From the NCBI GenBank assembly GCA_035461765.1, contig DATHUY010000145.1, positions 11,964-75,963 on the forward strand: DNA of 64,000 nucleotides, read 5' to 3'. Position 1 is the first letter of the stretch. Every line of letters begins with the position of its first letter. The stretch is from Longimicrobiales bacterium. Lineage in GTDB: Bacteria; Gemmatimonadota; Gemmatimonadetes; Longimicrobiales; RSA9. Shown here piece after piece: positions 2,818-61,407 of the stretch. The notes below the pieces were generated by a model, which worked only from the letters and a program-made list of their open reading frames with translations, did no database searches and had not been told where the DNA came from. Both the position numbers and the translations under genes were made by a program.

Positions 2818-2907
2818 TGCTCGTGAGCCGCATGAGGCGGGTTGATCGGTAGTGGCCGACGACATTCTCAGCTGGCGAGCTCGCGTTCGACCAACAGAGG
2901 AGCACAC

Positions 2908-43562: not shown

Positions 43563-43871
43563 GGGATTCCTCCTCGTTCGTGCGCCGTTCGCGGCGCGGT
43601 TCGCGTTGCGTTGTGGCGATGCACAGGAGCAAGCGCGCAACCATGCCGGCACGACCGTACCGGAGCGGCGGAATGCCTTATGGCAAAACACGTTACGGCG
43701 AATACTCTGCGGTGGCGGGTCGGTCGCGACGTGGCTGGCGGGACACGAATGCAGGAGGCGCTGTGTCCGCGTGGACACATCGCACGGCGTCCGCAGTCCG
43801 ATTGCATGCAGGCGCCCGATTACGTATTTCTCCAGTCCGAATTCACCGCGCCCACCAGCATCGAGCCCATC

Positions 43872-46307
43872 ATGAGAATTGACGACGCCGCGTTCACGGG
43901 GCTGTGCGTCCTGCTGCTCGCCGCCGGCGGCTGCGGCACGCGCGCGGCCGCCGCACCTGCCCAGACACCGGACCGTCCAGCGGGGGCGGCCGCGCGCGAC
44001 ACGGGGATGAAGCCGTATGCGCAGGCGATCCCGCGCGACGCGACTGCAGACAGCGGGATGTTCGTGGTGCACAGCACCGCGGACCGGGTACTGTTCGAGA
44101 TTCCGGACTCACTGCTCGGCCGCGAGATGCTGATGATCAGCCGGTGGGCGAGTGTGCCGACGAATTTCGGCGGGTTCAATCCAGCGGGTTTCTCGGCGCA
44201 GGAGCAGATCATGACGTGGGAGCGCCGCGGCGACCGGATCCTGCTGCGCAAGCACTCCTACGACCAGGTTGCGGCCGACAGTGCGGCGATTGCGCTCAGC
44301 GTAATGGCAAACAACCTGGCGCCGATCGTCGCATCGTTCCCGATTGCGGCGATCACGCCGGACTCCGGCGGGGTCGTGGTCGATGTAACGGATTTCTACA
44401 AGGGCGATACGCCTGCGATCAGCGGACTGAGCCCCGCTCGGCGCCGCGAGTACGGGGTGCGGCGCCTCGATCCGGAACGCAGCTACATCAATTCGGCGCG
44501 TGCGTACCCGATGAACGTGGAGGTGCGGCACACACAGACGTTCGAGGCGACGACACCGCCCTCGGATGAGCACATCGGCGCCCTCACGATCGACATGAAC
44601 CAGTCGCTGGTGCTGCTGCCGCGCGACCCGATGCGGCCGCGCCATGCGGACGACCGGGTCGGCTACTTCAGCATCCGTCAGATCAACTTCGGCATTGCGG
44701 ATCAGAAGGCGCCGGAGCAGCGCTTCATCCGGCGGTGGCGGCTGGAGCCGAGCGACCGGGCCGCGTACGCGCGTGGCGAGCTGGTAGAGCCGGTCAAGCC
44801 GATCGTCTACTATCTCGATCCTGCGACACCGCCCGAGTATCGCTCGTGCGTGCGTCAAGGCATTGAGGACTGGCAGGCGGCATTCGAGACGGCCGGCTTC
44901 CGCAATGCCATTGTCGCGGCCGATCCGCCGTCGGCGGCCGAGGACCCGGACTGGAACCCGGAGGATGTGCGCTACTCGGTGGTGCGGTGGGCCGCGAGCG
45001 AGACCCGCAACGCACAGGGTCCGAGCACGAGCGATCCGCGCACGGGCGAGATCATTGAGAGCGACATCGTCTGGTACCACAACCATCTCCGTTCGTATCG
45101 CAACCGCCTGCTGATCGAGACGGGTGCGGCGAACCCGGCGGTGCGGAGCCTGCCGATCGATGAGGGACTGATGTGCGAGGCGATGCGGCAGGTGATCGCA
45201 CACGAGGTCGGTCACGCCCTCGGACTCCCGCACAACATGATCTCGAGCTCCGCGTATCCTGTCGATTCGCTGCGGTCACCGACCTTCGCCGCGCGCATGG
45301 GTGTGGCGCCGTCGATCATGGACTACGCGCGGCAGAACTACGTGGCGCAGCCAGGCGATGGTCTTACCGGCGCGGACTTCATCCGCCGCATCGGGCCGTA
45401 TGACCACCACTCGATCAACTGGGGATACCGCGTCCTGCCGGACGCGCCGACGCCCGACGCGGAGGTGGCCACACTCAACCGCTGGATCACGGACCGCGCG
45501 AACGACCCGGTTTACCGGTTCCTCCAGGGCCAGCCGTCAGCCGCGGACCCGCGGTCGCAGACGGAGGACATCGGCGATGATCCGGTGCGTGCGAGCACGT
45601 ACGGCATCGAGAACCTGAAGCGCGTGCTGCCGAACCTCATCCGGTGGACTACGCGGCCGGGCGAGGACTATTCCGATCTGGAGGAGATCTACGGTGAGTT
45701 CGTGGGGCAGTGGTATCGCTACGTGAACCACGTCGCGGCCGTGATTGGCGGCGTGCACGCCGATCTCAAGACGGCCGATCAGGCAGGCGCGGTCTACAGT
45801 CCCGTCCCGCGCGCGGAGCAGGAACGGGCCCTCGAGTTCATCGCTGAACAGGTACTGGAGGAGCCCGTCTGGATACTGGATCAGGCCGTTCTCGATCGCA
45901 TCGGCACGGGCGGGCCGCAGCAGCTGCAGCAGCGACAGGCGGCGATGGTGAGCAACCTGCTGTCGAGCAGCCGGCTCGGCAGGATGGCGGAGCTCGAGCT
46001 GACCCACCCCGGCCGGGCCTGGCCGGTCGGTGATTACCTCGACGACGTCCGTTCGGCCGTGTGGGGCAGTGCGGCCGCGACCGCGCGCAATGCCTATCGT
46101 CGTGCGCTGCACCGTGCGCACGTCGCGCGGCTGGCCGCGCTGCTGAACAGTGAGACGGACGCGTCGGATGTGCGGGCGCTGGCTCGTGCGCAGCTGGTGA
46201 GCGTGCGTGCCGCGGCGAACACCGCTGCAGGCCAGGCGACCGGCGTGGCGCGTGCGCACCTGCGCGACATTGTGGAGCGTATCGACGAGGCGCTGGACCC
46301 GAGCTGA
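43872..46307 (+). CDS. Zinc-dependent metalloprotease (DUF5117/DUF4953-type), lipoprotein
   Basis: HEVGHALGLPHN zincin motif. Lipobox LLAAGGCG. Start trimmed to the ATG at 43872. Confidence 0.8.
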   Translation: MRIDDAAFTGLCVLLLAAGGCGTRAAAAPAQTPDRPAGAAARDTGMKPYAQAIPRDATADSGMFVVHSTADRVLFEIPDSLLGREMLMISRWASVPTNFGGFNPAGFSAQEQIMTWERRGDRILLRKHSYDQVAADSAAIALSVMANNLAPIVASFPIAAITPDSGGVVVDVTDFYKGDTPAISGLSPARRREYGVRRLDPERSYINSARAYPMNVEVRHTQTFEATTPPSDEHIGALTIDMNQSLVLLPRDPMRPRHADDRVGYFSIRQINFGIADQKAPEQRFIRRWRLEPSDRAAYARGELVEPVKPIVYYLDPATPPEYRSCVRQGIEDWQAAFETAGFRNAIVAADPPSAAEDPDWNPEDVRYSVVRWAASETRNAQGPSTSDPRTGEIIESDIVWYHNHLRSYRNRLLIETGAANPAVRSLPIDEGLMCEAMRQVIAHEVGHALGLPHNMISSSAYPVDSLRSPTFAARMGVAPSIMDYARQNYVAQPGDGLTGADFIRRIGPYDHHSINWGYRVLPDAPTPDAEVATLNRWITDRANDPVYRFLQGQPSAADPRSQTEDIGDDPVRASTYGIENLKRVLPNLIRWTTRPGEDYSDLEEIYGEFVGQWYRYVNHVAAVIGGVHADLKTADQAGAVYSPVPRAEQERALEFIAEQVLEEPVWILDQAVLDRIGTGGPQQLQQRQAAMVSNLLSSSRLGRMAELELTHPGRAWPVGDYLDDVRSAVWGSAAATARNAYRRALHRAHVARLAALLNSETDASDVRALARAQLVSVRAAANTAAGQATGVARAHLRDIVERIDEALDPS

Positions 46308-46386: not shown

Positions 46387-47759
<1,373 letters not shown>

Positions 47760-47763
<4 letters not shown>

Positions 47764-49433
47764 TGGCCCTCTACCGGCAGGTCAACAGTGAACATCGTGC
47801 CGCGGCCGGGCTCGCTCTGCACGCGGATGCGTCCGCCCATGTCCGTCACCAGGCGCCGCACGATCGACAGGCCGAGACCGGTGCCGCGCTCCTTCGTCGT
47901 GTAGAAGTCATCGAATATCCGGTCCACCGCATCAGGCGGGATGCCGGCCCCCGTGTCCGCCACGATGATCGCGACGCCGCGGTCCGGCGCCGCTGCGGCT
48001 TCAGCCGTGCGGATGGTCACGCGGCCTTCACCAGCGGGGAGGCTCTCCAGCGCATTGATCATGAGGTTCTCGAGGACGCGCCGGAGTGCGACCGGATCGG
48101 CGGTCGCATGCGGCAGCGGACGTGTGAGCTCGAGTGTGAGACGATCGTCATCGGGTACTCCCGTATCCCGCAGCGCCTCGATGATGGCGTTCACATCGCA
48201 CGGCCTGCGTTCCGTGCGCGGAGTGAGCCGCGCGTAATTCGTCGCCAGGTTCTCCAGATACCCGATTCCGCCCCGCAGTGTGCCCGCCCGCTCGTTGAAC
48301 ACAGCGGCGAGCTCTCCAGGCGACTCCTCTGCAACCTCGCCGAGGTGATGTATGACATTGCGGATCGGCAGCAAACCGTTGCGTATGTCGTGGTTCACCT
48401 GGCGAGCCATGTCGCCCACCGTCGCGCGTCGCTCCGCTTCACGAAGCTGCTGTGCGCCAGCGCGCAGGCGCTGCACCATCCGGTCGAGCAGCCGCGACAG
48501 CGACCCGATCTCGTCGCGCCGGGGCGTTGACAGCCGGACGTCGTAGCGCGTCAGCTCGACGCGACTGGCATTGCGGGCGAGCCGCTCGAGCGGCCGCGTG
48601 ACGCGTGCGGCGAGGATCCGTGCGATCACGAAGGCCAGCAGAAGCGCCGTTCCGAGCGCAATGGCGAACCATCGATCCACGAGAGCGACGATCGCATGCA
48701 GCGGCGCGAGCGATTGCGATATCATCCATGTCGCAGTATCGCCATCAGCGGCATCGTCACCGGCGATGAACGGAACCCCGATCGTCTGTGTGACCGCGTC
48801 CCCGGGCAGCGGCATGGCACCCGTGATGATGCCGTCGGGGCGCTGCAGCGTCACCAAAACGTTTCCGACAGTGTCCGTCAGCCGGGACACGAACGTCGAA
48901 TCGATTTCCACTCCCGCCACCAGCGCGAAGCTGCGGTCGCCGAGCTCGAACGATCGGGCACGCACGAGTGCCGTGAACGAGCCTGCCGGCCGGTGCGCTT
49001 CTACCACTGCGGGGCCTGAGATCGTGGCGAGTCCTGTCAGCCATGGGAGGTCCCGTCCGTAATCGTTGCGGAAATGGCCGGAGCTGAGAACGCTGCCACG
49101 CTCGTCGAGCAGCAGCATGAAGTCGAGTCCGGCCAGCCGCATCGCGTCCGGTGCGTAGTCGACCAGCGCCGTACCCGGCTCCGAATCGAGCAGTGCTGCG
49201 CGGGTGTCGGGGCGGTCCGTGGTCCGCGCCACCAGCGTGCGGATGCGTTCGTCGAGCACAGCGGCAGTGCGCGCGAGCTCGGCCTGCACAGCCTGCGCCG
49301 ACTGCTCCACGCTTTCCTGGTACTGGAGCGTGAGACGTTCGCGCACAACGTGACGGGCGCCCGCGGCGAGGACGAGGAGCGGTACGGCCGCGACGGCGAG
49401 GCAGGCGAGGAGTATGCGCGTGCGGAACGTCAT
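47760..49433 (-). CDS. Sensor histidine kinase (periplasmic domain, HAMP, HisKA, HATPase_c)
   Basis: H-box ARQVNHDIRNGLLPI, DTGAGIPP, GTGLGLSIV. 4-nt overlaps with both the upstream and downstream genes. Confidence 0.85.
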
Positions 49434-50746
49434 GGGCCGCCGAACCGGAGCGTGCCATCCGCGTCCACAGTCACACGGCCAATGCCCGCCCGATAGACCA
49501 GGTCGTCGCGAACGTCGATCAAGGGCGTCAGCTGCCAGTGCAGCAGCGGCGCGTACTCCAGGGCGGAGTCCGGGTTGCAGCCTGCGTGTTCCACGCGCCT
49601 GACCCGGGTCACGACAGCGAGCGCACCGCCGTCTTCCAGCGCCCCGCGCAGCTCGGCAGCGTCTACACCCACTGCGGTCGGCGCGGCGTGGGATGCCAGA
49701 CGGCTCGCAAGCCACTGCGGTGCACGTCCGCGCGCCAGCGCAGCGATTCGCTCCGCGATCGCTCGCGCGACCGGGTCTTCACGCAGGAACAGAATCCGGC
49801 CGGTCTGCCCGACGGTGATGCCTGCCGGCTCAGGGGCGACATGGTCACCGGCTTCCAGGACCGCGGCGCAGCCGTCCCACCAGAACGGCGGCTGTGCCGG
49901 CCGCGCCGCGGCGCCGACTACGGCGGAGGGGAACGCGTCCGCAGGAACGTCCGCATGGCCGTCCGCATCGCCAGTCGCGGCGAGCACGTATGTGCTGCTC
50001 CACGTCAGCGGCTCAACGAGGTAGCCGGAACGAGCGCGCGCGTACGCGATGACAGCGGCATCGTGCGTCACGAGGAGGTCGACGCCCGCATCGATCGCCC
50101 TGCGCAGGTCGGTGCCGAACGCCCGCACGACGATGGTATCCGGTACCGAGGCGCGCGCGACGTCCGCGCTCGGCCTTGCGGGCGAGCTGCGGAGGGCGAG
50201 CACCAGCGCACGGTCGCGCGGGCCGGGCGACAGGGTGTAGGCTCCGGTCCCCATCGGCGTTCCGGCACCGTCCGAACGTCGCACCGCAACGTAACGCCGC
50301 GCGAACAGGCTCACATCCGTCGACTCGGCGAGCATCACGCGCAGGTCGTACTCTCCCAGCGCACTCACACCCGCAAAGACGGGCAGCGTCGAGAGAGCAG
50401 TGGCGACGCTCCGTGCGTTTACCGGCGTGCCGTCGGAGAACGACGCGCCGCTCCGGATCTCGAACTGCCAGTCCCGACCGTTCCCCGAGGACCAGCCGAC
50501 CGCCAGGCCGCTGCCGACCCGGCCCATGCAGTCGACCCGTACGAGCGTCTCGTACAGTTGCGGGCCTGTTACAGGGTCCTCGAACGTGCCCGGTGTCGGA
50601 GCATCGGCGAGCCCCAGCGTGATGCGCGAGCGAGCGCTGTCAGCGACGACCACGCAGTCGTTACCTCCCGGAGCAGCTGGAGTCGGGACCGCGGGCGTGC
50701 AGGCAGCGGCCGTGACCAGTACTGCGATGTCGACAGTCCTGCGCAA
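49430..50746 (-). CDS. SBP family-5-like periplasmic lipoprotein, first gene of the HK/RR operon
   Basis: Lipobox LVTAAAC. SBP_bac_5-like block (LAVGWSSGNGRDWQFEIRSGASFSDGTPVNA). TTG start at 50746 preceded by GGAGG. Start uncertain. Confidence 0.55.
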   Translation of the reverse strand: MRRTVDIAVLVTAAACTPAVPTPAAPGGNDCVVVADSARSRITLGLADAPTPGTFEDPVTGPQLYETLVRVDCMGRVGSGLAVGWSSGNGRDWQFEIRSGASFSDGTPVNARSVATALSTLPVFAGVSALGEYDLRVMLAESTDVSLFARRYVAVRRSDGAGTPMGTGAYTLSPGPRDRALVLALRSSPARPSADVARASVPDTIVVRAFGTDLRRAIDAGVDLLVTHDAAVIAYARARSGYLVEPLTWSSTYVLAATGDADGHADVPADAFPSAVVGAAARPAQPPFWWDGCAAVLEAGDHVAPEPAGITVGQTGRILFLREDPVARAIAERIAALARGRAPQWLASRLASHAAPTAVGVDAAELRGALEDGGALAVVTRVRRVEHAGCNPDSALEYAPLLHWQLTPLIDVRDDLVYRAGIGRVTVDADGTLRFGGP

Positions 50747-50932
50747 GGAACCTCCCCATCCGGGAATCGAACGACGCCAGGCACTGCCGGGACAAGGTAG
50801 GACACGCAGTCGGCTGACGGGAGGCCCGGCGAGAAACACGATCCGGGGCACGAATGAAGGTGAGATCGGCCAGATGACGCACTCCCATGAAGAGGCATCA
50901 TTGCACCGTTTCACCTTCGGAGGAGCCGATCC

Positions 50933-53392
50933 ATGCATGATCCACGACGTCATCCTGCCTGTACGACCTTCCTCGCGGTCTCCCTCACGTTCCTGCTGGC
51001 ATGCTCCGAGGACGCGAACGGGCCGACCGATCCGGGGAGCTCGACACCGCCGGCATCAGTCGATGCCTACATGAACACACTGCCGGACACCTGGGCCGAC
51101 TATGCGCCACTCGAGCCGACTTCCAACGCCGTCGCAGGCGCGGCGACCACGACCGAGCAGACGGTCCAGGAGCCCGGCCCCGGCGGGATCGTGCAGCCGG
51201 TGATCTACGCTTGCACCGAGACACCCTACTCTCTGACGGACACGCCCGCAGAGATCGCGATGTATCAGCCGAACGCCAACATCATGTGGCTCGGCAACCT
51301 GATCCAGGGTGCGAGCTACAAGGGTGGCAGCGGCTCGTTCGAGGAGCTGACGATCACCGAGCGCGACACTCTCACGATATCGATCGACCTCCTGACGCAG
51401 GACAACGTCGCGGTCATTCCGCGTCCCACACTCGGCAGCGTGCAATCGGCCGTTGGCGGCCTCATCGAGCGTGCGGCGGACCGCGGCCACAAGACGGGAT
51501 CGAGCATCTCGTGGGAAGAGAACATCACGTACTCCGTCGAACAGGCTGCGCTCCAGCTCGGGCTGTCCGCGCGCTACCTGGGCGGCAAGGCCAAGACCGA
51601 TCTGTCGACGTCACGTGTCGCCAACGAGAAGACGTACACTGCGCATTTCGTGCAGAGAATGTTCACGATCGCGATCGAGCTGCCGGCGAGCGCCGGCGAC
51701 TTTTTCACGGACGATTTCACGCAGGCGAAGCTCGAGAAGCTGATCAGCGACGGCTACATTGGTCCGAACAACCCGCCCGTCTACATCGCGAGTATCTCGT
51801 ATGGCCGGATCCTCACGTACTCGCTGACGTCCACGCACTCGGAGCACAGGATCAAGGCGGCGATATCCGCATCGTACAATGGCGTCGCCGGCGGGGCGAG
51901 CGGCTACACCGAGGCGGAGCTGCTCGAGACGCTCGATCAGCAGAATGTCCGCGTAGCGACGATCGGGGGCGATGCGCAGAACGTTTTGAACCTCATCGCC
52001 ACCGGCAATCTCAAGGCGTACTTCACCAGCGATGAGCCCGTCTCGCTCACGACGGCACGCCCCATTTCCTATCAGCTCAACTACCTCGGTGACAACAGGA
52101 CCGCAGAAGTCTCCGAGACGAGCAGCTACACGCTGACCGAGTGCAGCCCGAAGGCCGCGGCCGGCGGACGCTTCGACTTCCCTTCCATACAGGAAGGCTC
52201 ATCGCCCGTCCCCACACCCTACTCCGTCACGACCGGCGACTTCAACGGCGACGGCCGTGGCGATCTGCTGTGGAACCACCTGGTCTCCGGATCCAACCGC
52301 ATCGCCGTCGGGTTCGGAATGACCGACGGAACGTTCGACATCCGAACGGCAGTTACCCATGACATGACGCCGCCGGAAGGCTGGGGCAACGGCTACACGA
52401 TGCACGTCGGTGACTTCAATGCCGATGGTCTCGACGATCTAATGTGGAACCGCGTCCGGGGTGGCGGTGCGAACCGCGTCTACATCGCAATCTCGAACGG
52501 CGATGGCACGTTTGCCTTCCGCACACCCACAACCCATCCGAATGAGCCCGCATGGATCGACGGCTGGCGTACTCACGTCGGCGACCTGAACGGCGATGGC
52601 CGCAGCGACATCATCTGGAACCTGCTCGGCCAGTCCAACTACACGTTCACTGCCCGTGCCGTCACCGACAGTACATTCGCCTATAGCGGACGCATGACAC
52701 ATCCGTCACAGGGATTTCAGCCGTACGTCGCCTACATCGGCGATGTCGACGGCGACGGTGATGACGACATCACATGGAACAAGACACCGTCCGACAACTG
52801 GATCCACTTCGGCCGGTCGAACGGCAACGGCACGCTGACCCTGTCGATGTCCGCGCAGTCCATCGGCTCGGCCGCCGGCTGGCAGTCCTACGTGACGAAC
52901 ACGGGCGACGTCAATCGCGATGGCCGCATGGACATGGTCTGGACCGTGCACGACGCGGCGTTCATTCTGCACCGCGCGCTGGGCGAGACGAACGGCCGGT
53001 TCCGTCACCTCCAGTATTCGAGCCACGACCCGCTCGACCTGCAGGGCACGCTCGAGACGCTGATGGGCGATTTCAACGGGGACGGCGGCGACGACCTCCT
53101 GTTCATCGATATCGGTGTCGGCCGCAACCACATGACGATAGCGCAGGGCAACGTCGATGGCGGCTTCGACTTCACGCCGACGCCGCAGGAGCATCCGGCG
53201 AGCGCGGGCTCAGAGGACTGGACGGCGTTCCGCGGCGGGATCCTGGTGCTGGACGTGAACGGCGACTGTCGCGATGACGTCGTCTGGAACGAGCGGTCCG
53301 TGACGAACCGGATCTATGTCGCGCTGGCGCGCGGGCAGGGCTCGTGCGCGGCGCCCGGCATGATGAGCGGGCGTTCAGCTCTGCGCTGGTGA
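50933..53392 (+). CDS. Lipoprotein: CDC-like (thiol-activated cytolysin fold, D1-D3) pore-forming module fused to seven FG-GAP/VCBS repeats
   Basis: Lipobox TFLLACSED. CDC blocks NEKTYTAHFVQRMFTIAIELP and NPPVYIASISYGRILTYSLTSTHSEHRIKAA, with the FF (aa 257-258) ... YGR (aa 290-292, nt 51800-51808) signature. Seven repeats of the GDFNGDGxxDLLWN type fall between aa ~428 and 815. GGAGGA RBS. Confidence 0.8.
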   Translation: MHDPRRHPACTTFLAVSLTFLLACSEDANGPTDPGSSTPPASVDAYMNTLPDTWADYAPLEPTSNAVAGAATTTEQTVQEPGPGGIVQPVIYACTETPYSLTDTPAEIAMYQPNANIMWLGNLIQGASYKGGSGSFEELTITERDTLTISIDLLTQDNVAVIPRPTLGSVQSAVGGLIERAADRGHKTGSSISWEENITYSVEQAALQLGLSARYLGGKAKTDLSTSRVANEKTYTAHFVQRMFTIAIELPASAGDFFTDDFTQAKLEKLISDGYIGPNNPPVYIASISYGRILTYSLTSTHSEHRIKAAISASYNGVAGGASGYTEAELLETLDQQNVRVATIGGDAQNVLNLIATGNLKAYFTSDEPVSLTTARPISYQLNYLGDNRTAEVSETSSYTLTECSPKAAAGGRFDFPSIQEGSSPVPTPYSVTTGDFNGDGRGDLLWNHLVSGSNRIAVGFGMTDGTFDIRTAVTHDMTPPEGWGNGYTMHVGDFNADGLDDLMWNRVRGGGANRVYIAISNGDGTFAFRTPTTHPNEPAWIDGWRTHVGDLNGDGRSDIIWNLLGQSNYTFTARAVTDSTFAYSGRMTHPSQGFQPYVAYIGDVDGDGDDDITWNKTPSDNWIHFGRSNGNGTLTLSMSAQSIGSAAGWQSYVTNTGDVNRDGRMDMVWTVHDAAFILHRALGETNGRFRHLQYSSHDPLDLQGTLETLMGDFNGDGGDDLLFIDIGVGRNHMTIAQGNVDGGFDFTPTPQEHPASAGSEDWTAFRGGILVLDVNGDCRDDVVWNERSVTNRIYVALARGQGSCAAPGMMSGRSALRW

Positions 53393-56017
53393 TCCGGCGC
53401 TGCACGTGCCGCCGTCATCGATGCCGGCGGCACGTGCAGCGGCACACGCGGCGCGCGTGTCCGGATGCTCCTGGCCGATGCGCTCGCGCAGCGCGCGGAG
53501 GGCCGCTTCGAAAACCGGCGCTGCCTCTGCACTGCTGCCTGTTACGGCCAGTCCGAGGGAAAGCGCGATCGCCGCACGACTCCGGACCGGGTCGCCGGGC
53601 TCCAGCCGTTCGACGGCAATGGTGTGCGCTTCACGCAGCAGCGGCATCGCGGCTGCGGTATCGGATGGCAGCAGGAGTTGTCCGAGTGCCACGAGTGTGT
53701 GAATGGTGACGCGCGGCGAGTCACGGGTCGATCCACGCCGGATGTCGAGTGCCGTGCGGTACTTCTGTTCAGCGGCCGCACGGTCGCCCTGCGCCTCGGC
53801 AAGGACGCCCTGCGAATGGAGCACGTATGCTGTGCCCGGATGGTCTTCGCCGAGCGTCGTGTGATAGACGACGAGCGCTGCGCTGAGCAGCGAGTCGGAT
53901 TCCACATGATCGCCGGGCGCGCCGCGCAGGGCGAGCAGTGTGCCGAGCGAGAAGAGCGATTCGCCGGTGAAGCGGTGGTCGGGGCCGAACACCTGCCGGC
54001 GCACGGCCAGGCCGCGCCGGGCGAACGGCTCCGCTTCATCATAGCGGCCTGCTTCACGTAGCATCATGGCGAGGTTGTCGAGACCGAAGCTCGTGTTCGG
54101 GTGGTCCTCGCCGAACTCGGCCAGATAGAGACGGAGCGTTTCACGCATGAGCGGCTCAGCCTCGGCGTACTGGCCGTGGTGTGTCAGCTGGAGGCCGAGA
54201 TTGTTGTAGACCGGAGCGTTGTCAATGTGATCGGGGCCGAGCACGCGCTGCTGGAGCTCGAGCACCTGACGGTACATGTCCTGCGACTCCTCATCGAGTC
54301 CCTGGCGCGCGAGCGATGTCGCGAGGTTGTTCATCGCACCCATGACCGCGTCGTGCTGCTCGCCCAGGACGGGGCGCCCCAGTGCGATCGCTTCCCGGAA
54401 ATAATGCGCGGCGGTGTCCGGCTGCCCGAGCCTGTCGAATGCGCTACCCAGAACGTTCATGTCGGATACGAGCAGCGAGTCGACGCCCTGCGGCAGCGTG
54501 CGCCGGACGTCCACGGCACGTGCAGTGAGGTCGGCAGCGGAGCGGTACTCGCCCAGCTGCAGCTGCACGCGGGCAAGCACGCTGAGCAGCTCCGCCTGAA
54601 CGGCGGGCTGGTCCGCCAGTTCGTCCGCGCGCTCCACGCCGCGCTCGAGCAGCTCACGCGCAGTCACCTCGGAGCCGCGCGTAGCGCGCGGGTCGCTCGC
54701 CTGGAACAGACCCGTCAGGAAGTCCTTGACCACGTTCGCCTGGGCCAGCGCAGTGACGGCGTCGGCACGCGCGGATTCCGCGCGCCGTGCCTGCCACGTC
54801 GTCGCCCCGAGTCCACCGGCCAGCGCGAGCACGAGTGCGGCCGCGGCCGCGACGGCGCCGGCATGGCGTCGCACGAACTTGCGTGCGCGGTAGCTGATTG
54901 TGGCCGGGCGTGCCAGCACCGGCTGACCGGCAACGTACCTGCCGATGTCCTCGGCAAGTTCCCGCACCGACGGGTACCGCGCTTCGGGCTCCTTCCGGAT
55001 CGAGCGCGCCACGATGTTGTCCAGGTCACCCTGCAGCGCCCGCCCGCTGACCGACCACGCGCTTCCGGTGCGTTGCCGAACCGCCACGCTCGCTGCAGGT
55101 GGATCCATCTCCAGCACTCGCCTTTGCTGATCCGCCGTGGAAGCCTGCGCGCCGAACGGCTGCTCGCCTGTCAGCAGCTCGTACAGCAGAACACCGAGCG
55201 AGAACACATCCGTGCCGACCGTGACACGCTCGCCGCGGATCTGCTCCGGACTCGCGTAGGAGGGAGTGAGCCGCCGCTCCATCAGTGCCGTGGCATCGGC
55301 ATTCCCGGCGAGCGGCTTCGCAATGCCGAAGTCCACCAGCTTCGGCACGCCGTCCGCATCCACGAGGATGTTCGACGGCTTGATGTCGCGGTGCACGATC
55401 AGCGACGCATGCGCGTGCTGCACTGCATCGCAGACGCGCAGGAACAGCTCGAGCCGTGAGCGCAGATCCAGCTCGCGACGCTCGGAATACGCCGTGATCG
55501 CCTCCCCATCGACGTATTCCATGACCAGGTACGGCGTACCGTCCGGCGCATCGCCGCCGTCCAGCAGGCGCGCGATGTTCGGATGCGTGAGGTCGGCCAG
55601 CACCTGCCGCTCGGCGCGGAACCGGCGCGCCAGCTCGGCATCGGCGAACCCGCCGCGCACGATCTTGATCGCGACCTGCGCGTGATATGCATCGTCCGCG
55701 CGCTCCGCGAGCCAGACCGTGCCCATGCCGCCGCGGCCGAGCTCCCTCAGCAGCCGGTACGGACCCAGCAGCCGTCCGCTGCCTGCGCCGTCACTCCACT
55801 CGCGCGCCGCCGTCTGTATGGCGCCCGAGACGATGCCGAGCGTCGCCGCCTCTTCGTGCGCGTCGAGAAGTCGGCCGACCAGCGCGCGCAGCTCCTCATC
55901 AGCGCCGCACATGGTTTCCATGAAGTCGGTGCGGTCGGCCGCATCCAGTTCGAGCGCGGCGTCGAAGAGCGCCTGCGCACGGTCGAGCCTTTCGCGATCC
56001 ATGGTAATCTCGTTCAA
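53375..56017 (-). CDS. Ser/Thr protein kinase with a TM segment and a C-terminal TPR array
   Basis: HRDIKPSNILV, DFGIAK, SPEQ. TM segment AVAAAAALVLALAGGLGATTW. Multiple TPR_12-like repeats. 4-nt overlap with the ECF sigma stop. Confidence 0.9.
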   Translation of the reverse strand: MNEITMDRERLDRAQALFDAALELDAADRTDFMETMCGADEELRALVGRLLDAHEEAATLGIVSGAIQTAAREWSDGAGSGRLLGPYRLLRELGRGGMGTVWLAERADDAYHAQVAIKIVRGGFADAELARRFRAERQVLADLTHPNIARLLDGGDAPDGTPYLVMEYVDGEAITAYSERRELDLRSRLELFLRVCDAVQHAHASLIVHRDIKPSNILVDADGVPKLVDFGIAKPLAGNADATALMERRLTPSYASPEQIRGERVTVGTDVFSLGVLLYELLTGEQPFGAQASTADQQRRVLEMDPPAASVAVRQRTGSAWSVSGRALQGDLDNIVARSIRKEPEARYPSVRELAEDIGRYVAGQPVLARPATISYRARKFVRRHAGAVAAAAALVLALAGGLGATTWQARRAESARADAVTALAQANVVKDFLTGLFQASDPRATRGSEVTARELLERGVERADELADQPAVQAELLSVLARVQLQLGEYRSAADLTARAVDVRRTLPQGVDSLLVSDMNVLGSAFDRLGQPDTAAHYFREAIALGRPVLGEQHDAVMGAMNNLATSLARQGLDEESQDMYRQVLELQQRVLGPDHIDNAPVYNNLGLQLTHHGQYAEAEPLMRETLRLYLAEFGEDHPNTSFGLDNLAMMLREAGRYDEAEPFARRGLAVRRQVFGPDHRFTGESLFSLGTLLALRGAPGDHVESDSLLSAALVVYHTTLGEDHPGTAYVLHSQGVLAEAQGDRAAAEQKYRTALDIRRGSTRDSPRVTIHTLVALGQLLLPSDTAAAMPLLREAHTIAVERLEPGDPVRSRAAIALSLGLAVTGSSAEAAPVFEAALRALRERIGQEHPDTRAACAAARAAGIDDGGTCSAGSPAQS

Positions 56018-56580
56018 GCGGTTCTCAGACGATCGTACAGCCAGCTGCGGGCGAAGCGGAGATCCCGGTGGACGGTGACCGGCGACACGCCGAGCAGCTC
56101 GGCCGCATCCTCATAGCTCACACCGGCGAAGTAGTGCAGCTCGACCAGCCGGGCCTTTCGCTCATCCAGCGCCTCCAGCTCTTCGAGAGCGCGGTCGACT
56201 GCTATGATGTCGATCGGGTCAGGACCATCCTCACCGGCCGGATCGCCCAGCGTGACCGCGATCACGCCGCCGCCGCGTTTCAACCGCTGGCGAGCCCGTG
56301 CGTGGTCGACCAGCACCCTGCGCATCGTGCGCGCGGCCACGGCCAGGAAATGGCGCCGCCCCTCCCAGCCGACCTCCGCCCCCGCGAGCCGCAGATACGC
56401 TTCATGGATCAGAACGGTCGTCTGCAGCGTGACGGAGCCCCGCTCATCACGCAGCGAGCGGCTCGCGATGGCCCGCAGCTCATCGTACACGAGCGGAATG
56501 AGCCGGTCCAGCGCCGAGGCGTCGCCCGCGCTCCACGCGGACAGGAGTGCCGTTACGTCGGCGTTTTCGGGATTCGGCAT
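56014..56580 (-). CDS. ECF sigma factor of the TIGR02999 type (kinase-associated ECF group)
   Basis: VTALLSAWSAGDASALDRLIPLVYDELRAIA, HEAYLRL, VDHARARQRLKRGGG, VTVHRDLRFARSWL. Start placed at the ATG at 56580 (ORF-track start 56604 is possible). Confidence 0.85.
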   Translation of the reverse strand: MPNPENADVTALLSAWSAGDASALDRLIPLVYDELRAIASRSLRDERGSVTLQTTVLIHEAYLRLAGAEVGWEGRRHFLAVAARTMRRVLVDHARARQRLKRGGGVIAVTLGDPAGEDGPDPIDIIAVDRALEELEALDERKARLVELHYFAGVSYEDAAELLGVSPVTVHRDLRFARSWLYDRLRTA

Positions 56581-56656
56581 AGACCAGGGCGGCGAAGGGG
56601 TCACTGACGAAAGCTACAATGGGCGGGTGACGGAAGGAACAGCAACGAATCCGATT

Positions 56657-56804: not shown

Positions 56805-57689
56805 ATGCCCGAGCTTCCCGACGTCACCGTCTACATGGAACGACTGGCCGAGCTCATCGGCGGGCGCGTCATCCAGCGCGTGCGCATCACCAATCCGTTC
56901 GTGCTCCGCTCCGTCGAGCCGCCGATCCGCGCGGTGGAAGGCCGGCGCGTGGCAGGCGTCGACAGGATCGGCAAGCGGATCGTCGTGCCGCTCGATGGCG
57001 ATCTGTTCATTGTCGTGCACCTCATGATCGCCGGACGGCTTCGCTGGCGCGAGCCGGGGAAGAAGATCGGCGGTCGGATCGTGCTGGCGGAGTTCATGTT
57101 CGAGCATGGCACACTCTATCTGACGGAGGCGGGGACCACCCGCCGCGCGATGCTTCATGTGGTCGAGGGTGCGAAGTCGCTGCACGCGTTCGACCGGGGC
57201 GGTATCGATCCCGTCACCGCGGATCTGGCTGCATTCGCTCAGGTGCTGCGCTCGGAGAACCACACACTCAAGCGATCGCTCACCGACCCCCGGCTGTTCA
57301 GCGGCATTGGCAACGCGTATTCCGACGAGATCCTGCACCGCGCGCGGTTGTCACCGCTCGCACTGAGCGGGAGACTGAGCGAAGCTGACGTGGCGCGGCT
57401 GCATGCCGCGGTGCGCGATACGCTGGAGGAATGGACGGCTCGACTGCGTGCAGAGGCCGGCGCCACCCTGCCGGAGAAGGTGACGGCGTTCCACCCGGAG
57501 ATGGCGGTGCACGGCCGTTACGGAAAACCGTGTCCCGTCTGTGGCGCACCCGTCCAGCGCATCCGCTACGCGTCGAACGAAACGAACTACTGTGCGCGCT
57601 GCCAGACCGGTGGCCGGGTGCTGGCGGATCGCGCGATGTCGCGCCTGCTGAAGGACGACTGGCCGCGCTCGATCGACGACATCGAATGA
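56805..57689 (+). CDS. Fpg/Nei-family DNA glycosylase/AP lyase
   Basis: MPELPDV N-terminus (catalytic Pro2). C-terminal zinc finger CPVCGAPVQRIRYASNETNYCARCQ. The ORF-track start at 56655 (MRERERERE...) is rejected because it reads through the hexamer repeat. Confidence 0.85.
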   Translation: MPELPDVTVYMERLAELIGGRVIQRVRITNPFVLRSVEPPIRAVEGRRVAGVDRIGKRIVVPLDGDLFIVVHLMIAGRLRWREPGKKIGGRIVLAEFMFEHGTLYLTEAGTTRRAMLHVVEGAKSLHAFDRGGIDPVTADLAAFAQVLRSENHTLKRSLTDPRLFSGIGNAYSDEILHRARLSPLALSGRLSEADVARLHAAVRDTLEEWTARLRAEAGATLPEKVTAFHPEMAVHGRYGKPCPVCGAPVQRIRYASNETNYCARCQTGGRVLADRAMSRLLKDDWPRSIDDIE

Positions 57690-57833
57690 TCGGTGTCACC
57701 CACGTCGCTGCCCGCGCGACGTCCCGCCGGATGTCCTGTCCGGGCAGCATGTCGCCCTTGTGAGATGGAGGCCGGTGCGTATTCTTGAGGCGGCACTCGC
57801 CCGACCCATCCACCACTCGATCTGATCAGCGCC

Positions 57834-58322
57834 ATGCAGCCAGCTCCGCCGTTCCTCGATCCGGTGAACGCCGAGTTCTGGGTCCGTGTCGGCACCGCGT
57901 TCTTCTGTGGCGGCATCATCGGCCTCGAGCGGCAGGTCCGGGGCAAGCCGGCGGGCATCCGCACGAGCGTGCTGATCTGTCTCGGTACGTGCGTGTTCGT
58001 CATCCTGAGCAGCTCGTTTAATCAGCCGGGCGCCGACCCGACGCGTGTCCTGGGCCAGGTTGTGACGGGCATCGGGTTCCTGGGCGCCGGCGTCATCCTC
58101 ACGCGCGAGGGAGCGGTGCTTGGCGTGACGTCCGCGGCCACGATCTGGATGCTCGCTGCGATTGGCGCCGCAATCGGCTTCGGCTGGATCCAGGCGGCAC
58201 TGGCCCTGGCGGCGGTCACGGTCGGCATTCTCGTGGGCGTGGAGCTGCTCGAAGCATCGTTCGTCACGCTGCGCCGGGGCGTCCACGCCTGGCGCGGTAA
58301 CCGCACGGAATCCGGTGAGTGA
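57834..58322 (+). CDS. MgtC/SapB-family membrane protein
   Basis: GGIIGLERQVRGKPAGIRTSVLICLG is typical of the MgtC N-terminal domain. Confidence 0.8.
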   Translation: MQPAPPFLDPVNAEFWVRVGTAFFCGGIIGLERQVRGKPAGIRTSVLICLGTCVFVILSSSFNQPGADPTRVLGQVVTGIGFLGAGVILTREGAVLGVTSAATIWMLAAIGAAIGFGWIQAALALAAVTVGILVGVELLEASFVTLRRGVHAWRGNRTESGE

Positions 58323-58323
58323 C

Positions 58324-58821
58324 ATGCGCATTCGGGTGTTCGTGACGGGCGGTACGTTCGACAAGGAATACGACGAGCTGCACGGCACGCTCGATTTCCG
58401 CGAGACGCACGTCCCCGAGATGCTGCGGCTCGGGCGCTCGCGCGTCGATGTCGCCGTCACCACGCTCATGATGATGGACAGCCTGGACATCTCGAGCGCC
58501 GACCGCACGCGCATCGTCGACCAGTGCCTCACATGCGCGGAAAGTCAGATCGTCATCACGCACGGCACGGACACGATGGTGGAAACCGCGCGCGCGCTCG
58601 CGCAGCAGCATGCCGACAAGACCATTGTCCTCACCGGCGCCATGATTCCCTATGCGTTCGGCAGCTCCGATGGCCTCTTCAATCTCGGCAGCGCGCTTTC
58701 CTTCGTGCAGGTGCTGCCTGCCGGCGTCTACATTGCCATGAACGGGCGCTGGTTCCCCTGGAACGATGTGCGGAAGAACCGCGCGACCGGCACGTTCGAG
58801 CCGCTGCCCCCTTCCGGCTGA
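58324..58821 (+). CDS. Short asparaginase N-terminal-domain protein
   Basis: VFVTGGTFDK and ITHGTDTM motifs of L-asparaginase/GatD-type enzymes. Only about 165 aa. Starts 1 nt after the MgtC stop. Confidence 0.7.
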   Translation: MRIRVFVTGGTFDKEYDELHGTLDFRETHVPEMLRLGRSRVDVAVTTLMMMDSLDISSADRTRIVDQCLTCAESQIVITHGTDTMVETARALAQQHADKTIVLTGAMIPYAFGSSDGLFNLGSALSFVQVLPAGVYIAMNGRWFPWNDVRKNRATGTFEPLPPSG

Positions 58822-58828
58822 AGCCGGG

Positions 58829-59251
58829 TCGTTCCTCGTCGACGATCTCATCGTGCAGCGCTACATCGAGCTGGAAGACAGTATCCGCAGGGTCATGACC
58901 GTCGTAAAGATGCGGGGCAGCGAACACCCGACCGCATGGCGCGCCTACGACATCGGCCAGGGTGGCATCACCGTCGGTGAAGAGCTGAACGAGTACCGCG
59001 GTATCATTACCGGGGTACCGGTGCCTCGCGAGGACATCTCCATTGCCCGTCTCTCCGCTACGGAGATCGCAGTTCTGAACGTGATTTCCCAGGCCGGCGA
59101 ATCCGAGGTGGAACCAATTGTGCAAAGTACACGGATAGACGCCGCCAGAGTGCAATGGGCACTCGAGCGGCTGGTCCGGCTGGGCTATCTCGTCGCCAGA
59201 TCGCGCGGCGAAGGTCGTCTGTATCGACCTGCCGGGAGTGTGCTCGAATAG
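58829..59251 (+). pseudogene. KaiC/RecA-superfamily ATPase C-terminal remnant followed by a winged-helix domain; lacks Walker motifs
   Basis: FLVDDLIVQRYIELEDSIRRVMTVVKMRGSEHPTAWRAYDIGQGGITVGEEL..YRGIITGVP resembles the last ~70 aa of KaiC-like proteins. Homology begins abruptly next to the asparaginase stop. The only in-frame starts are the GTG at 58853, the ATG at 58895 and the overlapping ATG at 58766. Confidence 0.5.
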
Positions 59252-59263
59252 GCAGGAGGTAAT

Positions 59264-60460
59264 GTGCAGCACAGTGCCGGCGGAGCAGTCGGAGTCGAAG
59301 CATGGCTGACGCTCGCCGAGCGCGCCCCCGTCGGCATTGCCATCACTACCGGTGCGGACCACCGCCTCGAATATGCGAACCGCGCCTTCACGCGCATCGC
59401 CGGATCCCCCCACGCTGACCTCTGCGGGTGCCGTCCTGCCGATGTATTGAACAGCCCTGCCCTCACGCAGCGACTCGACACCGTGCTGCAGAGCGGTGTT
59501 CCCATTCATTCCGCGGAGCTGTACACCGCCGCCGGCAATGACTTCAGGCTTTCCGCCTGGCCGCGCGGTGACGAGATCGACGGTTCCGGCCTGGTCATCG
59601 AGCTCGACGAGGCCGTCGGTACCCACACGCGGCAACAGGAGACCGACGAGGTGCGCGAGGTCAATGCGCGGCTCGTACGGGCGGCGCTTCGCGAGGAGGA
59701 GCTAGCGGAACAGGCGAGGGCGGCCAGTCGTGCCAAATCGGAGTTCCTCGCCCTGATCAGTCACGAACTGCGCACGCCGCTGACCGCAGTGATCGGCTAC
59801 ACCGATATGCTGCAGACGGGCAAGGGCGGATTGAACGAGCAGGGCTCGCTGTGGACTGACCAAATTCGCTTCAGCGCCTGGCACCTGCGCCAGATCGTGG
59901 ACGATCTGCTCAGCACGGTGTCGGAGAACCGTGCTGCGGACGAGATCGTGCCGCAGTTTACCTGCGCGGATGCGATAGCGCGCGAGGCGATCGCGCTCGT
60001 GGAAACGAGGGCCGGCGAGAAGGGGCTCGAGGTGAGACTCGACGCGCCGCCCCTGAACATCCCGCTCCACACGGACCGGCGCAAGGTGCGCCGAGCCCTC
60101 GCCAACCTGCTGACGAACGCAGTGAAGTTCACGGACGAGGGGCTCGTCGAGCTGAAGGTCGAGCCGAATGGCGACGGCGTTGCCTTCCGCGTGCGTGACA
60201 CTGGTATCGGCATCAGCGAAGAGAACCTGGAGAGAATCTTCGAACCGTTCGTGCAGGTGGATCCGAGCACGACACGACGGTTCGGCGGGTGCGGCCTCGG
60301 CCTGGGCCTCAGCCGACGATTCGCGCGCGCGCTGGGAGGAGACCTGACGGTGACGAGCAGGCTCGGCGCCGGGAGCACGTTCAGCCTCATCATCCCCGGC
60401 ACGGCCACGGCGACTTCGGCCGACGGGGCCGGGTATCCAGACATTGCAGCGGAGGATTGA
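59264..60460 (+). CDS. PAS-domain sensor histidine kinase (cytoplasmic)
   Basis: PAS-like N-terminus. H-box FLALISHELRTPLTAV, N-box LTNAVKFT, DTGIGI, GCGLGLGLS. GGAGG lies before the GTG at 59264. Confidence 0.85.
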   Translation: MQHSAGGAVGVEAWLTLAERAPVGIAITTGADHRLEYANRAFTRIAGSPHADLCGCRPADVLNSPALTQRLDTVLQSGVPIHSAELYTAAGNDFRLSAWPRGDEIDGSGLVIELDEAVGTHTRQQETDEVREVNARLVRAALREEELAEQARAASRAKSEFLALISHELRTPLTAVIGYTDMLQTGKGGLNEQGSLWTDQIRFSAWHLRQIVDDLLSTVSENRAADEIVPQFTCADAIAREAIALVETRAGEKGLEVRLDAPPLNIPLHTDRRKVRRALANLLTNAVKFTDEGLVELKVEPNGDGVAFRVRDTGIGISEENLERIFEPFVQVDPSTTRRFGGCGLGLGLSRRFARALGGDLTVTSRLGAGSTFSLIIPGTATATSADGAGYPDIAAED

Positions 60461-60461
60461 C

Positions 60462-61334: not shown

Positions 61335-61358
61335 GTCAGGCCCGGTGTCCTCGCTGAC

Positions 61359-61379
61359 CAGCCGGAAATCATCCGGCTG
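61359..61379. terminator. Hairpin between convergent genes
   Basis: CAGCCGGA-AATCA-TCCGGCTG, 8-bp stem. Confidence 0.35.
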
Positions 61380-61407
61380 ATCAGCAGGCGCACCGCAACG
61401 CGGCCGA

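Follow-up and report, generated by a model that had tools for sequence, protein, structure and literature searches.

A gene for a putative pore-forming toxin was analysed in a 64,000-nucleotide stretch of DNA from a Longimicrobiales bacterium (assembly GCA_035461765.1, contig DATHUY010000145.1, positions 11,964 to 75,963 of the forward strand); this whole stretch is called the window below, and coordinates are counted from its first letter. The predicted product of 819 amino acids (aa) joins a module like domains 1-3 of the cholesterol-dependent cytolysins (CDCs) to a C-terminal beta-propeller. We read it as a single-chain, exported and lipid-anchored pore toxin of the CDC-like (CDCL) superfamily, which would be targeted to glycans and expressed on a signal passed through a neighbouring kinase and sigma factor (rough probability 0.65 for this reading as a whole, of which export and lipid anchoring form one part). 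The identical protein was called on two independent metagenome assemblies. An initial annotation, made from the letters of the window, had proposed a CDC-like pore module with a propeller in place of the receptor-binding domain, and this proposal was right in substance. The features of the gene and of the linked regulatory pair are listed in Table 1.

Table 1. Features of the toxin gene and of the adjacent kinase and sigma factor genes, in window coordinates (pLDDT, predicted local distance difference test; ECF, extracytoplasmic function; TPR, tetratricopeptide repeat; PFO, perfringolysin O; ORF, open reading frame; AF2, AlphaFold2).
Feature	Position	Strand	Evidence
Whole gene, predicted 819-aa CDCL pore-forming lipoprotein with C-terminal propeller	50933..53392	+	ORF with ATG start; Pfam PF01289, PF13517, PF01839
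Putative signal peptide with lipobox L-L-A-C, Cys24 at 51002-51004	50933..51004	+	read from sequence
Ser/Thr/Pro/Gly-rich tether behind the putatively lipidated Cys, aa 25-40	51005..51052	+	low-complexity composition; pLDDT <50 for aa 1-38
CDC domains 1-3, aa 41-406, including an N-terminal LPxW segment with invariant W54	51053..52150	+	PDB phmmer, profile, AF2 model, Foldseek
Cys94, invariant, in the long domain-2 strand 87-103	51212..51214	+	alignments across all C-terminal architectures; model
Helical bundle 1, predicted transmembrane hairpin 1, aa 201-232	51533..51628	+	model helices 202-208 and 218-224
M243-F244, equivalent of the F/Y-F/Y motif (PFO F230-Y231)	51659..51664	+	alignment with anthrolysin; Evans Fig. 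S2
Y290-G291-R292 (YGR motif)	51800..51808	+	aligns with PFO Y273-R275
Helical bundle 2, predicted transmembrane hairpin 2, aa 303-336	51839..51940	+	model helices 304-316 and 327-333
G345-G346, glycine pair opening the alpha-beta loop	51965..51970	+	invariant; aligns with PFO G324-G325
Cys404, invariant, last residue of the shared module and C-terminal swap point	52142..52144	+	alignments
Seven-bladed FG-GAP/VCBS (PVL/UmbA-type) beta-propeller, aa 413-805	52169..53347	+	model, profile, Foldseek, Ca loops, GW motifs
Hanks-type Ser/Thr kinase, transmembrane, TPR domain extracytoplasmic; 3' end overlaps that of the convergent toxin gene	53375..56002	-	Pkinase 1.2e-45, TPR_12 2.4e-46
ECF43-like sigma factor (PF07638) with LQTTV phospho-threonine motif; same orientation as the kinase and upstream of it	56014..56604	-	Sigma70_ECF 4.8e-51

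Pore-forming module

The Pfam family Thiol_cytolysin (PF01289) matched aa 100-402 with E = 1.3e-34 (120 bits; cutoff 25), a match that spans profile positions 48-348 of 353, and NCBIfam added nothing beyond Pfam. When the single sequence was compared with the PDB by phmmer, the top matches were all CDCs (anthrolysin, 1.4e-22; listeriolysin, 1.6e-20; vaginolysin, 1.9e-20; followed by suilysin, pneumolysin, streptolysin, intermedilysin and perfringolysin), and the CDC-like proteins of Elizabethkingia were much weaker (1e-8 and 5e-6). A profile of the pore module gave 9e-43 to 2e-30 for CDCs (best 8.7e-43), compared with 4e-18 for EaCDCL-S and 6e-11 for EaCDCL-L, the short and long Elizabethkingia anophelis proteins. 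An AlphaFold2 model of aa 41-407 (pLDDT 89.3, predicted TM-score (pTM) 0.87) was compared with the PDB by Foldseek, which returned 29 chains of soluble CDC monomers with probability 1.00 (TM-scores normalised to the query of 0.64-0.76, E-values of 5e-23 to 5e-18). The scores for the short and long EaCDCL proteins were 0.53-0.59, and those for pore-state pneumolysin and for membrane attack complex/perforin (MACPF) proteins were lower still. Both the Pfam scan and the structural search had been proposed as checks with the initial annotation, and they uphold its statement that residues ~90-405 resemble CDC domains 1-3. Of the two peptides it had quoted as perfringolysin for comparison, the first is genuine PFO, and the second, NPPAYISSVAYGRQVYLKLSTNSHSTKVKAA, belongs to listeriolysin O.

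In the model, two helix pairs flank the core strands at the places where CDCs keep their transmembrane-hairpin bundles. Alternation of hydrophobic and polar residues was seen at L207-L216 and A220-A230 of hairpin 1, which has a GG turn, and at M307-Y315 and T326-L334 of hairpin 2, which has a Gly-rich turn (column hydrophobicity in 27 homologues), so that the amphipathic pattern looked for in both regions is present and conserved. The hairpin 2 region is four residues longer than in CDCs, as judged by alignment with anthrolysin. The YGR signature stands where the initial annotation had placed it; G291 and R292 do not vary, and conservation of Y290 is 90% or more. Its other half was misplaced: the F257-F258 pair taken for the F/Y-F/Y motif aligns with PFO L244-F245, outside the motif, and the KQIFYTV region of PFO aligns with Q241-R242-M243-F244, so that the motif here reads M-F. 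A non-aromatic first position is found in 38% of CDCLs and an aromatic one in only 62%, while the remaining motif positions are 92-99% conserved (Evans et al., 2020). W54, C94 and C404 are invariant in all relatives irrespective of their C-terminal domain. In the model the two cysteines lie in the two long strands of domain 2, and they probably form a disulfide at its base.

The N terminus reads MHDPRRHPACTTFLAVSLTFLLAC up to the lipobox and continues with SEDANG into the tether. A hydrophobic N-terminal stretch ending in Cys is found in nearly all propeller-class homologues, in several of which an automatic lipobox pattern misfired, and the lipoprotein signal (LLAC) claimed at the outset is present. 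Signal peptidase II (SPII) sites are carried by many CDCLs (Evans et al., 2020).

Propeller domain

Domain 4, in which CDCs recognise sterol, is absent, and a predicted seven-bladed propeller takes its place. At E<=1 the only Pfam matches of the protein were PF01289, the FG-GAP repeats and a sub-threshold TcdB match, and after aa 405 no Pfam match other than FG-GAP was found; an ECTG/WEWW-type undecapeptide is absent from the 819 aa. The absence of domain 4 and of an ECTGLAWEWWR-type undecapeptide had been noted in the initial annotation, as had seven repeats that could close to a complete propeller. All seven were found. PF13517 (FG-GAP_3) matched with E = 4.3e-32 in 7 stretches and PF01839 (FG-GAP) with 9e-25, and D-x-[DN]-x-D-[GC]-x-x-D repeats begin at aa 436, 494, 551, 604, 659, 713 and 774. 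The segment aa 413-805 is modelled as 28 strands, mostly with pLDDT 80-95, which gives seven predicted four-stranded blades; the first propeller strand (420-423) probably closes the ring in the model.

The Ca2+-type DxNxDGxxD loop is kept in 7/7 blades. In blade 7 (53252-53278) it reads DVNGDCRDD, with Cys against the Gly of the family consensus and of a 76%-identical homologue family. A GW-type motif precedes 5/7 blades (GW at 483, 544 and 649, GF at 594, DW at 762), and in the profile search the GW motifs of the query align with those of the lectins PAL and AAL2. In the supercluster to which this propeller belongs, Ca2+ is bound by the DxDxDG loop, and in PVL and tachylectin-2 the GW motif between blades contributes to the sugar pocket (PMC8023676). 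No PDB match at E<=0.01 was obtained by phmmer with the propeller as a single sequence. With a profile of 10 family sequences the matches were UmbA4 (9OEE, 1.7e-30) and the fungal lectins for GlcNAc, PAL (1.8e-23), AAL2 (2.9e-21) and PVL (6.6e-18), followed by CRTAC1 (1e-12), and integrin alpha chains reached only ~1e-6. Foldseek with the full model likewise gave UmbA4 (5e-16, 26% identity), then AAL2, PVL and PAL (~1e-11). By binding teichuronic acid, with which its structure was solved, the lectin propeller of UmbA4 gives an antibacterial toxin particle its specificity for target Streptomyces (PMC13274773). Since its nearest relatives by profile and fold bind carbohydrate, and since the Ca2+ loops and most GW-type motifs are in place, the propeller may well be a Ca2+-dependent carbohydrate-binding targeting domain, a reading that analogy supports rather than proves. 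The earlier suggestion of a non-cholesterol receptor, either glycan or protein, is strengthened by the closeness to lectin propellers.

Linkage to a sigma factor and a transmembrane kinase

When every ORF up to 6 kb away was clustered for 81 non-duplicate CDCL loci, only ECF sigma factors and Ser/Thr kinases (STKs), apart from antisense shadow ORFs, were seen to recur around CDCL genes. Among propeller loci with at least 4 kb of flank on both sides, an ECF gene lay within 6 kb in 14/17 and an STK gene in 13/17; with at least 4 kb on one side the counts were 18/26 and 17/26. At loci with other C-termini (at least 4 kb on both sides) they were 6/23 and 7/23. Propeller loci accompanied by the pair were found in Gemmatimonadota, Rhodothermales, Balneolaceae, Bacteroidota and Nannocystales. 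When a hidden Markov model (HMM) of the sigma factor was run over ~1 Mb of flanking sequence, all 26 matches lay less than 4 kb from the toxin gene, 7 of them within 1 kb and 16 at 2-3 kb, which is one kinase gene away; zero matches were found in 506 kb of flank at 4-10.5 kb, and the window has a single one. The order ECF-STK-CDCL is kept, with the toxin gene co-directional, convergent or divergent.

The loci with the pair include the window and L001, L003, L005, L007, L011, L013, L014, L018, L019, L024 and L028, and further L033, L035, L042, L050, L064, L077 and others, from at least five phyla. L002/L008, from a Myxococcota metagenome-assembled genome (MAG), is among the few loci that have no pair; there the propeller toxin gene adjoins, on its upstream side, genes for a giant 3591-aa protein with an S8 peptidase domain and a 1760-aa protein with MopE repeats.

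The hallmark of ECF43 is an uncharged Q-T-T-A motif in sigma region 2.2 whose threonine is phosphorylated, and in Xanthomonas citri the ECF43 pair PknS/EcfK turns on the type VI secretion system (T6SS) upon contact with amoebae (PMC13147305). The linked sigma factors (n = 26) carry HTL(Q/N)TTALVHEAY or a close variant, with the Thr kept in nearly all; the window has TLQTTVLIHEAY. In the window's kinase, a single hydrophobic helix at ~aa 395-417 separates the kinase domain from the large TPR domain.

The closest locus for comparison is L001, from the Longimicrobiales (Gemmatimonadota) MAG GCA_036374995, to which the window is syntenic and 74-83% identical in nucleotides (blocks 46394-50098, 51081-53351 and 56805-61848). 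Both genomes have the toxin in the same slot, between an SBP_bac_5-like protein gene and fpg. In GCA_036374995, the sigma/kinase pair flanks the orthologous toxin gene on the opposite side, and it is no orthologue of the window's pair (identities of 50% for the ECF factor and 32% for the STK, against 79% for the toxin). Because the pair is non-orthologous and on the other side, so that the linkage was rebuilt or replaced, the comparison argues for selection: the module would have been replaced or moved while its linkage to the toxin was kept.

Two upstream motifs were picked by eye and then rescanned, both of them lineage-restricted. GTGCAC-N16-[GC]CGCA[GT] occurs 7 times in 2.6 Mb on both strands, and 5 of these sites are directly upstream of CDCL genes (L007:9868, L043:5593, L058:9820, L061:9822, L062:130). 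TGCGCGTrTAkG occurs 9 times, with 6 sites directly upstream of CDCL-propeller genes in Bacteroidota-type loci (L011:9892, L014:64, L018:9887, L024:1287, L025:9848, L077:9903). They hint at possible dedicated, ECF-dependent promoters. Further upstream-motif copies stand near neighbouring genes in L011, L018 and L031. A search for a universal ECF-type promoter upstream of 25 sigma-linked CDCL genes gave no gapped k-mer counts above the reverse-complement control.

Proposed mechanism and alternative readings

Taken as a whole, the preferred reading would work as follows. A signal would be sensed by the outer TPR domain of the kinase, the sigma factor would be phosphorylated, and the toxin gene would be transcribed. 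The toxin would be exported and lipidated, and would then sit on the cell surface or be shed on vesicles. Its Ca2+-loaded propeller would dock to a glycan, rather than a sterol, on the surface of another cell, after which domains 1-3 would oligomerise to a ring and the two helical bundles would refold to hairpins that make up a large beta-barrel pore. Conceivable targets are eukaryotic grazers without a cell wall and the outer membranes of rival Gram-negative bacteria.

Several points weigh against this. Control of the toxin by the adjacent sigma factor is read here from gene linkage, 3 of the 17 well-flanked propeller loci have no sigma/kinase pair, and neither upstream motif stands before the window's own toxin gene. 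The full-length AlphaFold2 model (27 homologues) shows the CDC-like N-terminal part, linker and propeller with a mean pLDDT of 83, but its pTM of 0.55 and a linker (aa 408-411) with pLDDT <50 leave the domain orientation uncertain; that the propeller would hold domains 1-3 at a workable height above the membrane is an assumption about the model. The lipid anchor could hold the toxin on the producing cell. The function of the propeller as a lectin is drawn from its relatives, and its class also includes protein binders (integrins) and gates (TcB). In the pore module, PFO F318 is replaced by V339 (I/L/V in the family), PFO K336 by T357, and the first F/Y-F/Y position by Met243; aromaticity is kept at PFO Y181 (W194 here, Y/F in the family), and PFO E183 corresponds to E196, which varies in the family. 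Because such residues of the CDC prepore-to-pore switch are not kept, the trigger of assembly may differ from that of CDCs, or the activity may be weak. The clade of this toxin is known from sequences and predicted models.

Whether the toxin works alone has to be weighed against the best-known CDCLs. The Bacteroidota CDCLs need an adjacent short partner and a TR/TK cleavage in a disordered beta-tongue-like region, and those of Bacteroides also have an immunity lipoprotein (PMC11169675); E. anophelis is noted to have no such immunity gene (Evans and Abrahamsen). The protein could thus be the long, membrane-docking subunit of a two-component, complement-like system of the Bacteroides/Elizabethkingia type; it would then have to be activated by proteolysis, and a short CDCL subunit from a separate gene would build the barrel. 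Like CDCL-L it has a receptor-type C-terminal domain and a lipoprotein signal, and a few tandem loci exist: a second CDC-type ORF stands beside the propeller gene in 3 of the 35 propeller loci. In L013 (7200-12364) and L015 (2936-8236), the tandem copies are full-length CDCL-propeller paralogues and not short subunits, and the upstream ORF of L011 (8339-9670) carries only the C-terminal half of the Thiol_cytolysin domain (PF01289 positions 159-345), possibly a frameshifted copy. No short subunit was found at any of the 35 loci, and no second CDC module or short partner in the window by tblastn and HMM. The segment analogous to the beta-tongue (the N-terminal region of domain 2) is predicted to be ordered (pLDDT 84-97), and aa 7-129 contain no Lys or Arg and hence no trypsin-like TR/TK site, other protease types not being covered by this count. 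No immunity-type neighbour was seen to recur: apart from ECF, STK and antisense shadow ORFs, no cluster occurs in more than 4 propeller loci. Together with the much greater closeness of domains 1-3 to the self-oligomerising CDCs than to either EaCDCL subunit, these observations favour a single-component toxin as judged from sequence and models, and make a two-component system improbable, though it is the least improbable of the alternatives. Tandem CDCL paralogues were also noted in L030 (three copies) and L051 (two copies).

Slightly less probable still is that the protein is mainly a surface adhesin or structural lipoprotein with a vestigial CDC module, whose propeller would not target glycans but bind protein or serve as a scaffold or adhesin in the manner of integrins or TcB. 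The breadth of the FG-GAP/VCBS class, with its protein-binding integrins and the TcB gate, a weak sub-threshold Pfam match to TcdB_toxin_midN and the loss of some CDC switch residues all point this way. Yet the CDC module is strongly constrained, having kept YGR, GG, both cysteines and the amphipathic hairpins in several phyla, lectin propellers outscore integrins by 12 to 24 orders of magnitude, and the GW pocket motif is kept. A sterol- or hopanoid-dependent cytolysin acting like the classical CDCs is very improbable: domains 1-3 are indeed nearest to those toxins, but the protein is without domain 4, where CDC sterol recognition sits, without the undecapeptide and without a domain to hold the Thr-Leu cholesterol motif. 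We give equally little credence to an anti-phage abortive-infection module made up of kinase, sigma factor and pore-former. Pore-formers such as gasdermins can be suicide effectors, and PADLOC kinase models, PD-T4-6 among them, match the kinase domain; those matches, however, are limited to the generic kinase domain, with none for the toxin or the sigma factor. Moreover, the kinase is of the receptor type with its TPR domain outside the membrane, and the toxin carries a lipoprotein export signal, which argues against an attack on the producer's inner membrane from the cytoplasm.

Distribution, classification and novelty

A word-indexed search returned ~30 full-length proteins of the same domain order, with 79% to 31% identity. 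An exhaustive HMMER scan with aa 90-410 gave 2147 cluster representatives at E<=1e-3 and 330 at E<=1e-30, and 344 GTDB species genomes encode a relative. At least 55 proteins consist of domains 1-3 and a propeller (48 by a stricter criterion), mostly as end-to-end matches with few partial ones. The full-length matches come from Longimicrobiales, Gemmatimonadales, Balneolaceae, Rhodothermales, Calditrichota, Bacteroidota/Bacteroidia and Myxococcota (including Nannocystales), all of them MAGs. The survey of homologues suggested by the initial annotation thus yielded both a shared domain order and conserved neighbours, namely the ECF/STK pair.

In clade members with other C-termini, domains 1-3 end at ...SETTxYxLxxC and then diverge. 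Pfam domains found there are Laminin B, He_PIG, Big_2, Tectonin and CarboxypepD_reg, and C-termini with no annotation are most commonly ~150 aa long. The module in these sister proteins (P0025-P0033, P0041/42/51, P0048/53, P0064, P0065, P0034-P0040, P0138, P0166) is 40-60% identical and joined to the other domains at the conserved Cys; in P0041/42/51, PF26770 lies N-terminal of the pore module. In the largest clade (Krumholzibacteria-type, ~550 aa), the C-terminal domain has no annotation and is distinct from CDC domain 4. In a rough, unbootstrapped neighbour-joining (NJ) tree, rooted on three CDC fragments and with very short internal branches, propeller forms fall mainly in two clades (31/45 and 23/30 tips) and are absent from the largest (0/135), and other C-termini are interleaved among the propeller tips of the two main clades. 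The propeller-bearing proteins do not form one clade in this tree, and its short branches would fit one fusion as well as several. Distances of domains 1-3 and of the propeller correlate moderately (Spearman 0.43). These sequences suggest that the fusion arose once or a few times and that the C-terminal domain was swapped repeatedly thereafter.

Evans et al. (2020) defined CDCLs by the motif and the GG pair, and described them as having no domain 4, highly variable binding domains and frequent SPII sites. The protein studied here has the motif (M-F...YGR) and the GG pair, no similarity to domain 4, another putative binding domain and, in the predicted model, CDC-like domains 1-3; by its sequence the pore module is a CDCL in that definition. 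The initial annotation knew of no characterised protein of this architecture, and in the searchable literature no paper was found that pairs a CDC, CDCL or thiol-activated cytolysin with a propeller, FG-GAP or VCBS. In Evans et al. (2020), "propeller" is absent from the main text, and Gemmatimonadetes from the main text and the searched supplements. The claim of novelty stands only in part, since the CDCL superfamily with its variable C-terminal binding domains has been published, and dozens of MAG proteins of exactly this architecture are already in databases under automatic names (two as "thiol-activated cytolysin family protein" at NCBI, from Longimicrobiales and Gemmatimonadales MAGs, and one as "thiol-activated cytolysin/VCBS repeat protein" at JGI). 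The propeller is a C-terminal domain type of CDCLs that was not previously described, within a superfamily that is itself known.

CDCs are textbook toxins of Gram-positive pathogens, CDCLs of Gram-negative bacteria were recognised only in 2020, and among CDCLs only the two-component Bacteroidota type has been characterised. The present branch is large and environmental, and true CDCs, not the characterised CDCLs, are the closer relatives of its pore module. It attaches interchangeable targeting domains at one conserved cysteine, with the lectin-type propeller as one recurrent choice, and so offers a natural domain-swap series in which the coupling of receptor binding to pore formation could be studied without sterols. 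Soil and sediment communities may be shaped by its members, which are candidates for glycan-specific membrane attack. A bolder generalisation, which we hold only tentatively and think somewhat more likely to fail than to hold, is that environmental Gram-negatives (Gemmatimonadota, Bacteroidota and Rhodothermota relatives, Calditrichota and Myxococcota) widely carry an unrecognised class of giant-pore toxins, the CDCL-propellers, which would be single chains targeted by a lectin domain and deployed through a dedicated ECF43 sigma factor and a receptor STK-TPR sensor, for instance upon sensing a grazer or competitor. If true, this would be the first link between signalling by sigma-factor phosphorylation and a pore-forming toxin, and a clade of cytolysin bodies that act without sterol and exchange their targeting domains would stand next to the classical CDCs. 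A circuit from kinase through ECF43 sigma factor to toxin could also reveal the signal that makes a bacterium fire a pore-forming weapon.

Comparison with known systems

With the classical CDCs (perfringolysin O, anthrolysin O, vaginolysin, listeriolysin O, pneumolysin) the toxin shares the PF01289 family, the predicted fold of domains 1-3, the YGR and GG motifs, two amphipathic helical bundles and an apparent single-component nature. It differs from them by the lack of domain 4, undecapeptide and cholesterol-recognition motif, by non-conserved equivalents of PFO F318 and K336, and by the addition of the LPxW segment and the invariant Cys94/Cys404 pair; classical CDCs are soluble secreted proteins, whereas this one appears to be a lipoprotein of a Gram-negative environmental host. 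Among the CDCLs of Evans et al. (2020), those of Basidiobolus meristosporus, Streptomyces mobaraensis and Deinococcus deserti have the same x-F...YGR...GG pattern with a non-aromatic first position (EKAF, ERGF and QNAF in their Fig. S2, compared with QRMF here) and very similar flanks (...DFF...LGPDN...PxxVxSIxYGR...). These CDCLs share with the toxin the lack of similarity to domain 4 and the frequent SPII lipobox, but an FG-GAP propeller as binding domain is not found in that paper.

The two-component CDCLs (EaCDCL-L/S and BfCDCL-L/S; PDB 8G32, 8G33, 6XD4, 9CCP) belong to the same superfamily, are exported as lipoproteins, have a proposed role in cell antagonism, and bear on the long subunit a C-terminal domain that is a non-sterol receptor-binding module. 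Their short partner, cleavage at TR/TK by a C11-type protease and adjacent immunity lipoprotein (Bacteroides) were not seen here, and their similarity to the toxin in sequence and fold is far below that of CDCs.

For aa 413-805 the best profile and fold matches are PVL and PAL (Psathyrella), AAL2 (Agrocybe) and UmbA4 (Streptomyces), lectins that have the DxDxDG Ca2+ loop in loop AB and an inter-blade (DA') GW motif as the propeller does; of the pocket residues only GW was compared. PVL, PAL and AAL2 are free-standing fungal lectins, unlike the fused propeller. UmbA4 is likewise the targeting lectin of an antibacterial toxin particle, but it is built of six blades and forms a subunit of its own in that multiprotein particle, whereas the propeller here is predicted to have seven blades and belongs to the same chain as the pore module. 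The lectin chain of snail perivitellin-2 is tachylectin-like. In that toxin a MACPF/CDC-fold pore-former is brought to membranes by a glycan-recognising lectin (PMC12031178), as is proposed here, but it is eukaryotic, consists of two disulfide-linked chains, belongs to the MACPF and not the CDC branch, and has an unrelated evolutionary origin.

The regulatory pair resembles EcfK-PknS of X. citri and EcfP-PknT of Vibrio parahaemolyticus, with a PF07638-type ECF factor, a Q-T-T-A/V motif, an adjacent transmembrane Ser/Thr kinase and no evident anti-sigma factor. It differs from them in that the linked gene is a CDCL pore-former (T6SS in X. citri), that the kinase has a large TPR ectodomain, and that the pair in the window is known from its genes.

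Genomic context

GC content is 67% for the window and 64% for the toxin gene, and this together with the synteny to the Longimicrobiales MAG agrees with the GC-rich Gram-negative host first supposed. A mobile-element or phage context was considered and rejected, as no tRNA and no Rfam match were found in the window, the remaining large genes are ordinary chromosomal ones, and synteny with the Longimicrobiales MAG is kept.

Directly upstream of the toxin gene lies a divergent block (46387-50953, minus strand) of a sigma-54-dependent response regulator, a HAMP histidine kinase and the SBP_bac_5-like protein, which is also syntenic in the Longimicrobiales relative. The 507-aa ORF of the SBP_bac_5-like protein is over-extended: gene callers give 407 aa, which leaves ~280 bp of intergenic sequence before the toxin start. 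A secreted Met-zincin of 1116 aa (DUF4953, DUF5117 and DUF5118; 42957-46307, plus strand) is encoded 4.6 kb upstream of the toxin gene, and the window also holds a GHL10-amidase fusion (2842-5556) and a SusC-like TonB-dependent receptor (10209-13379). All three are ordinary for such genomes.

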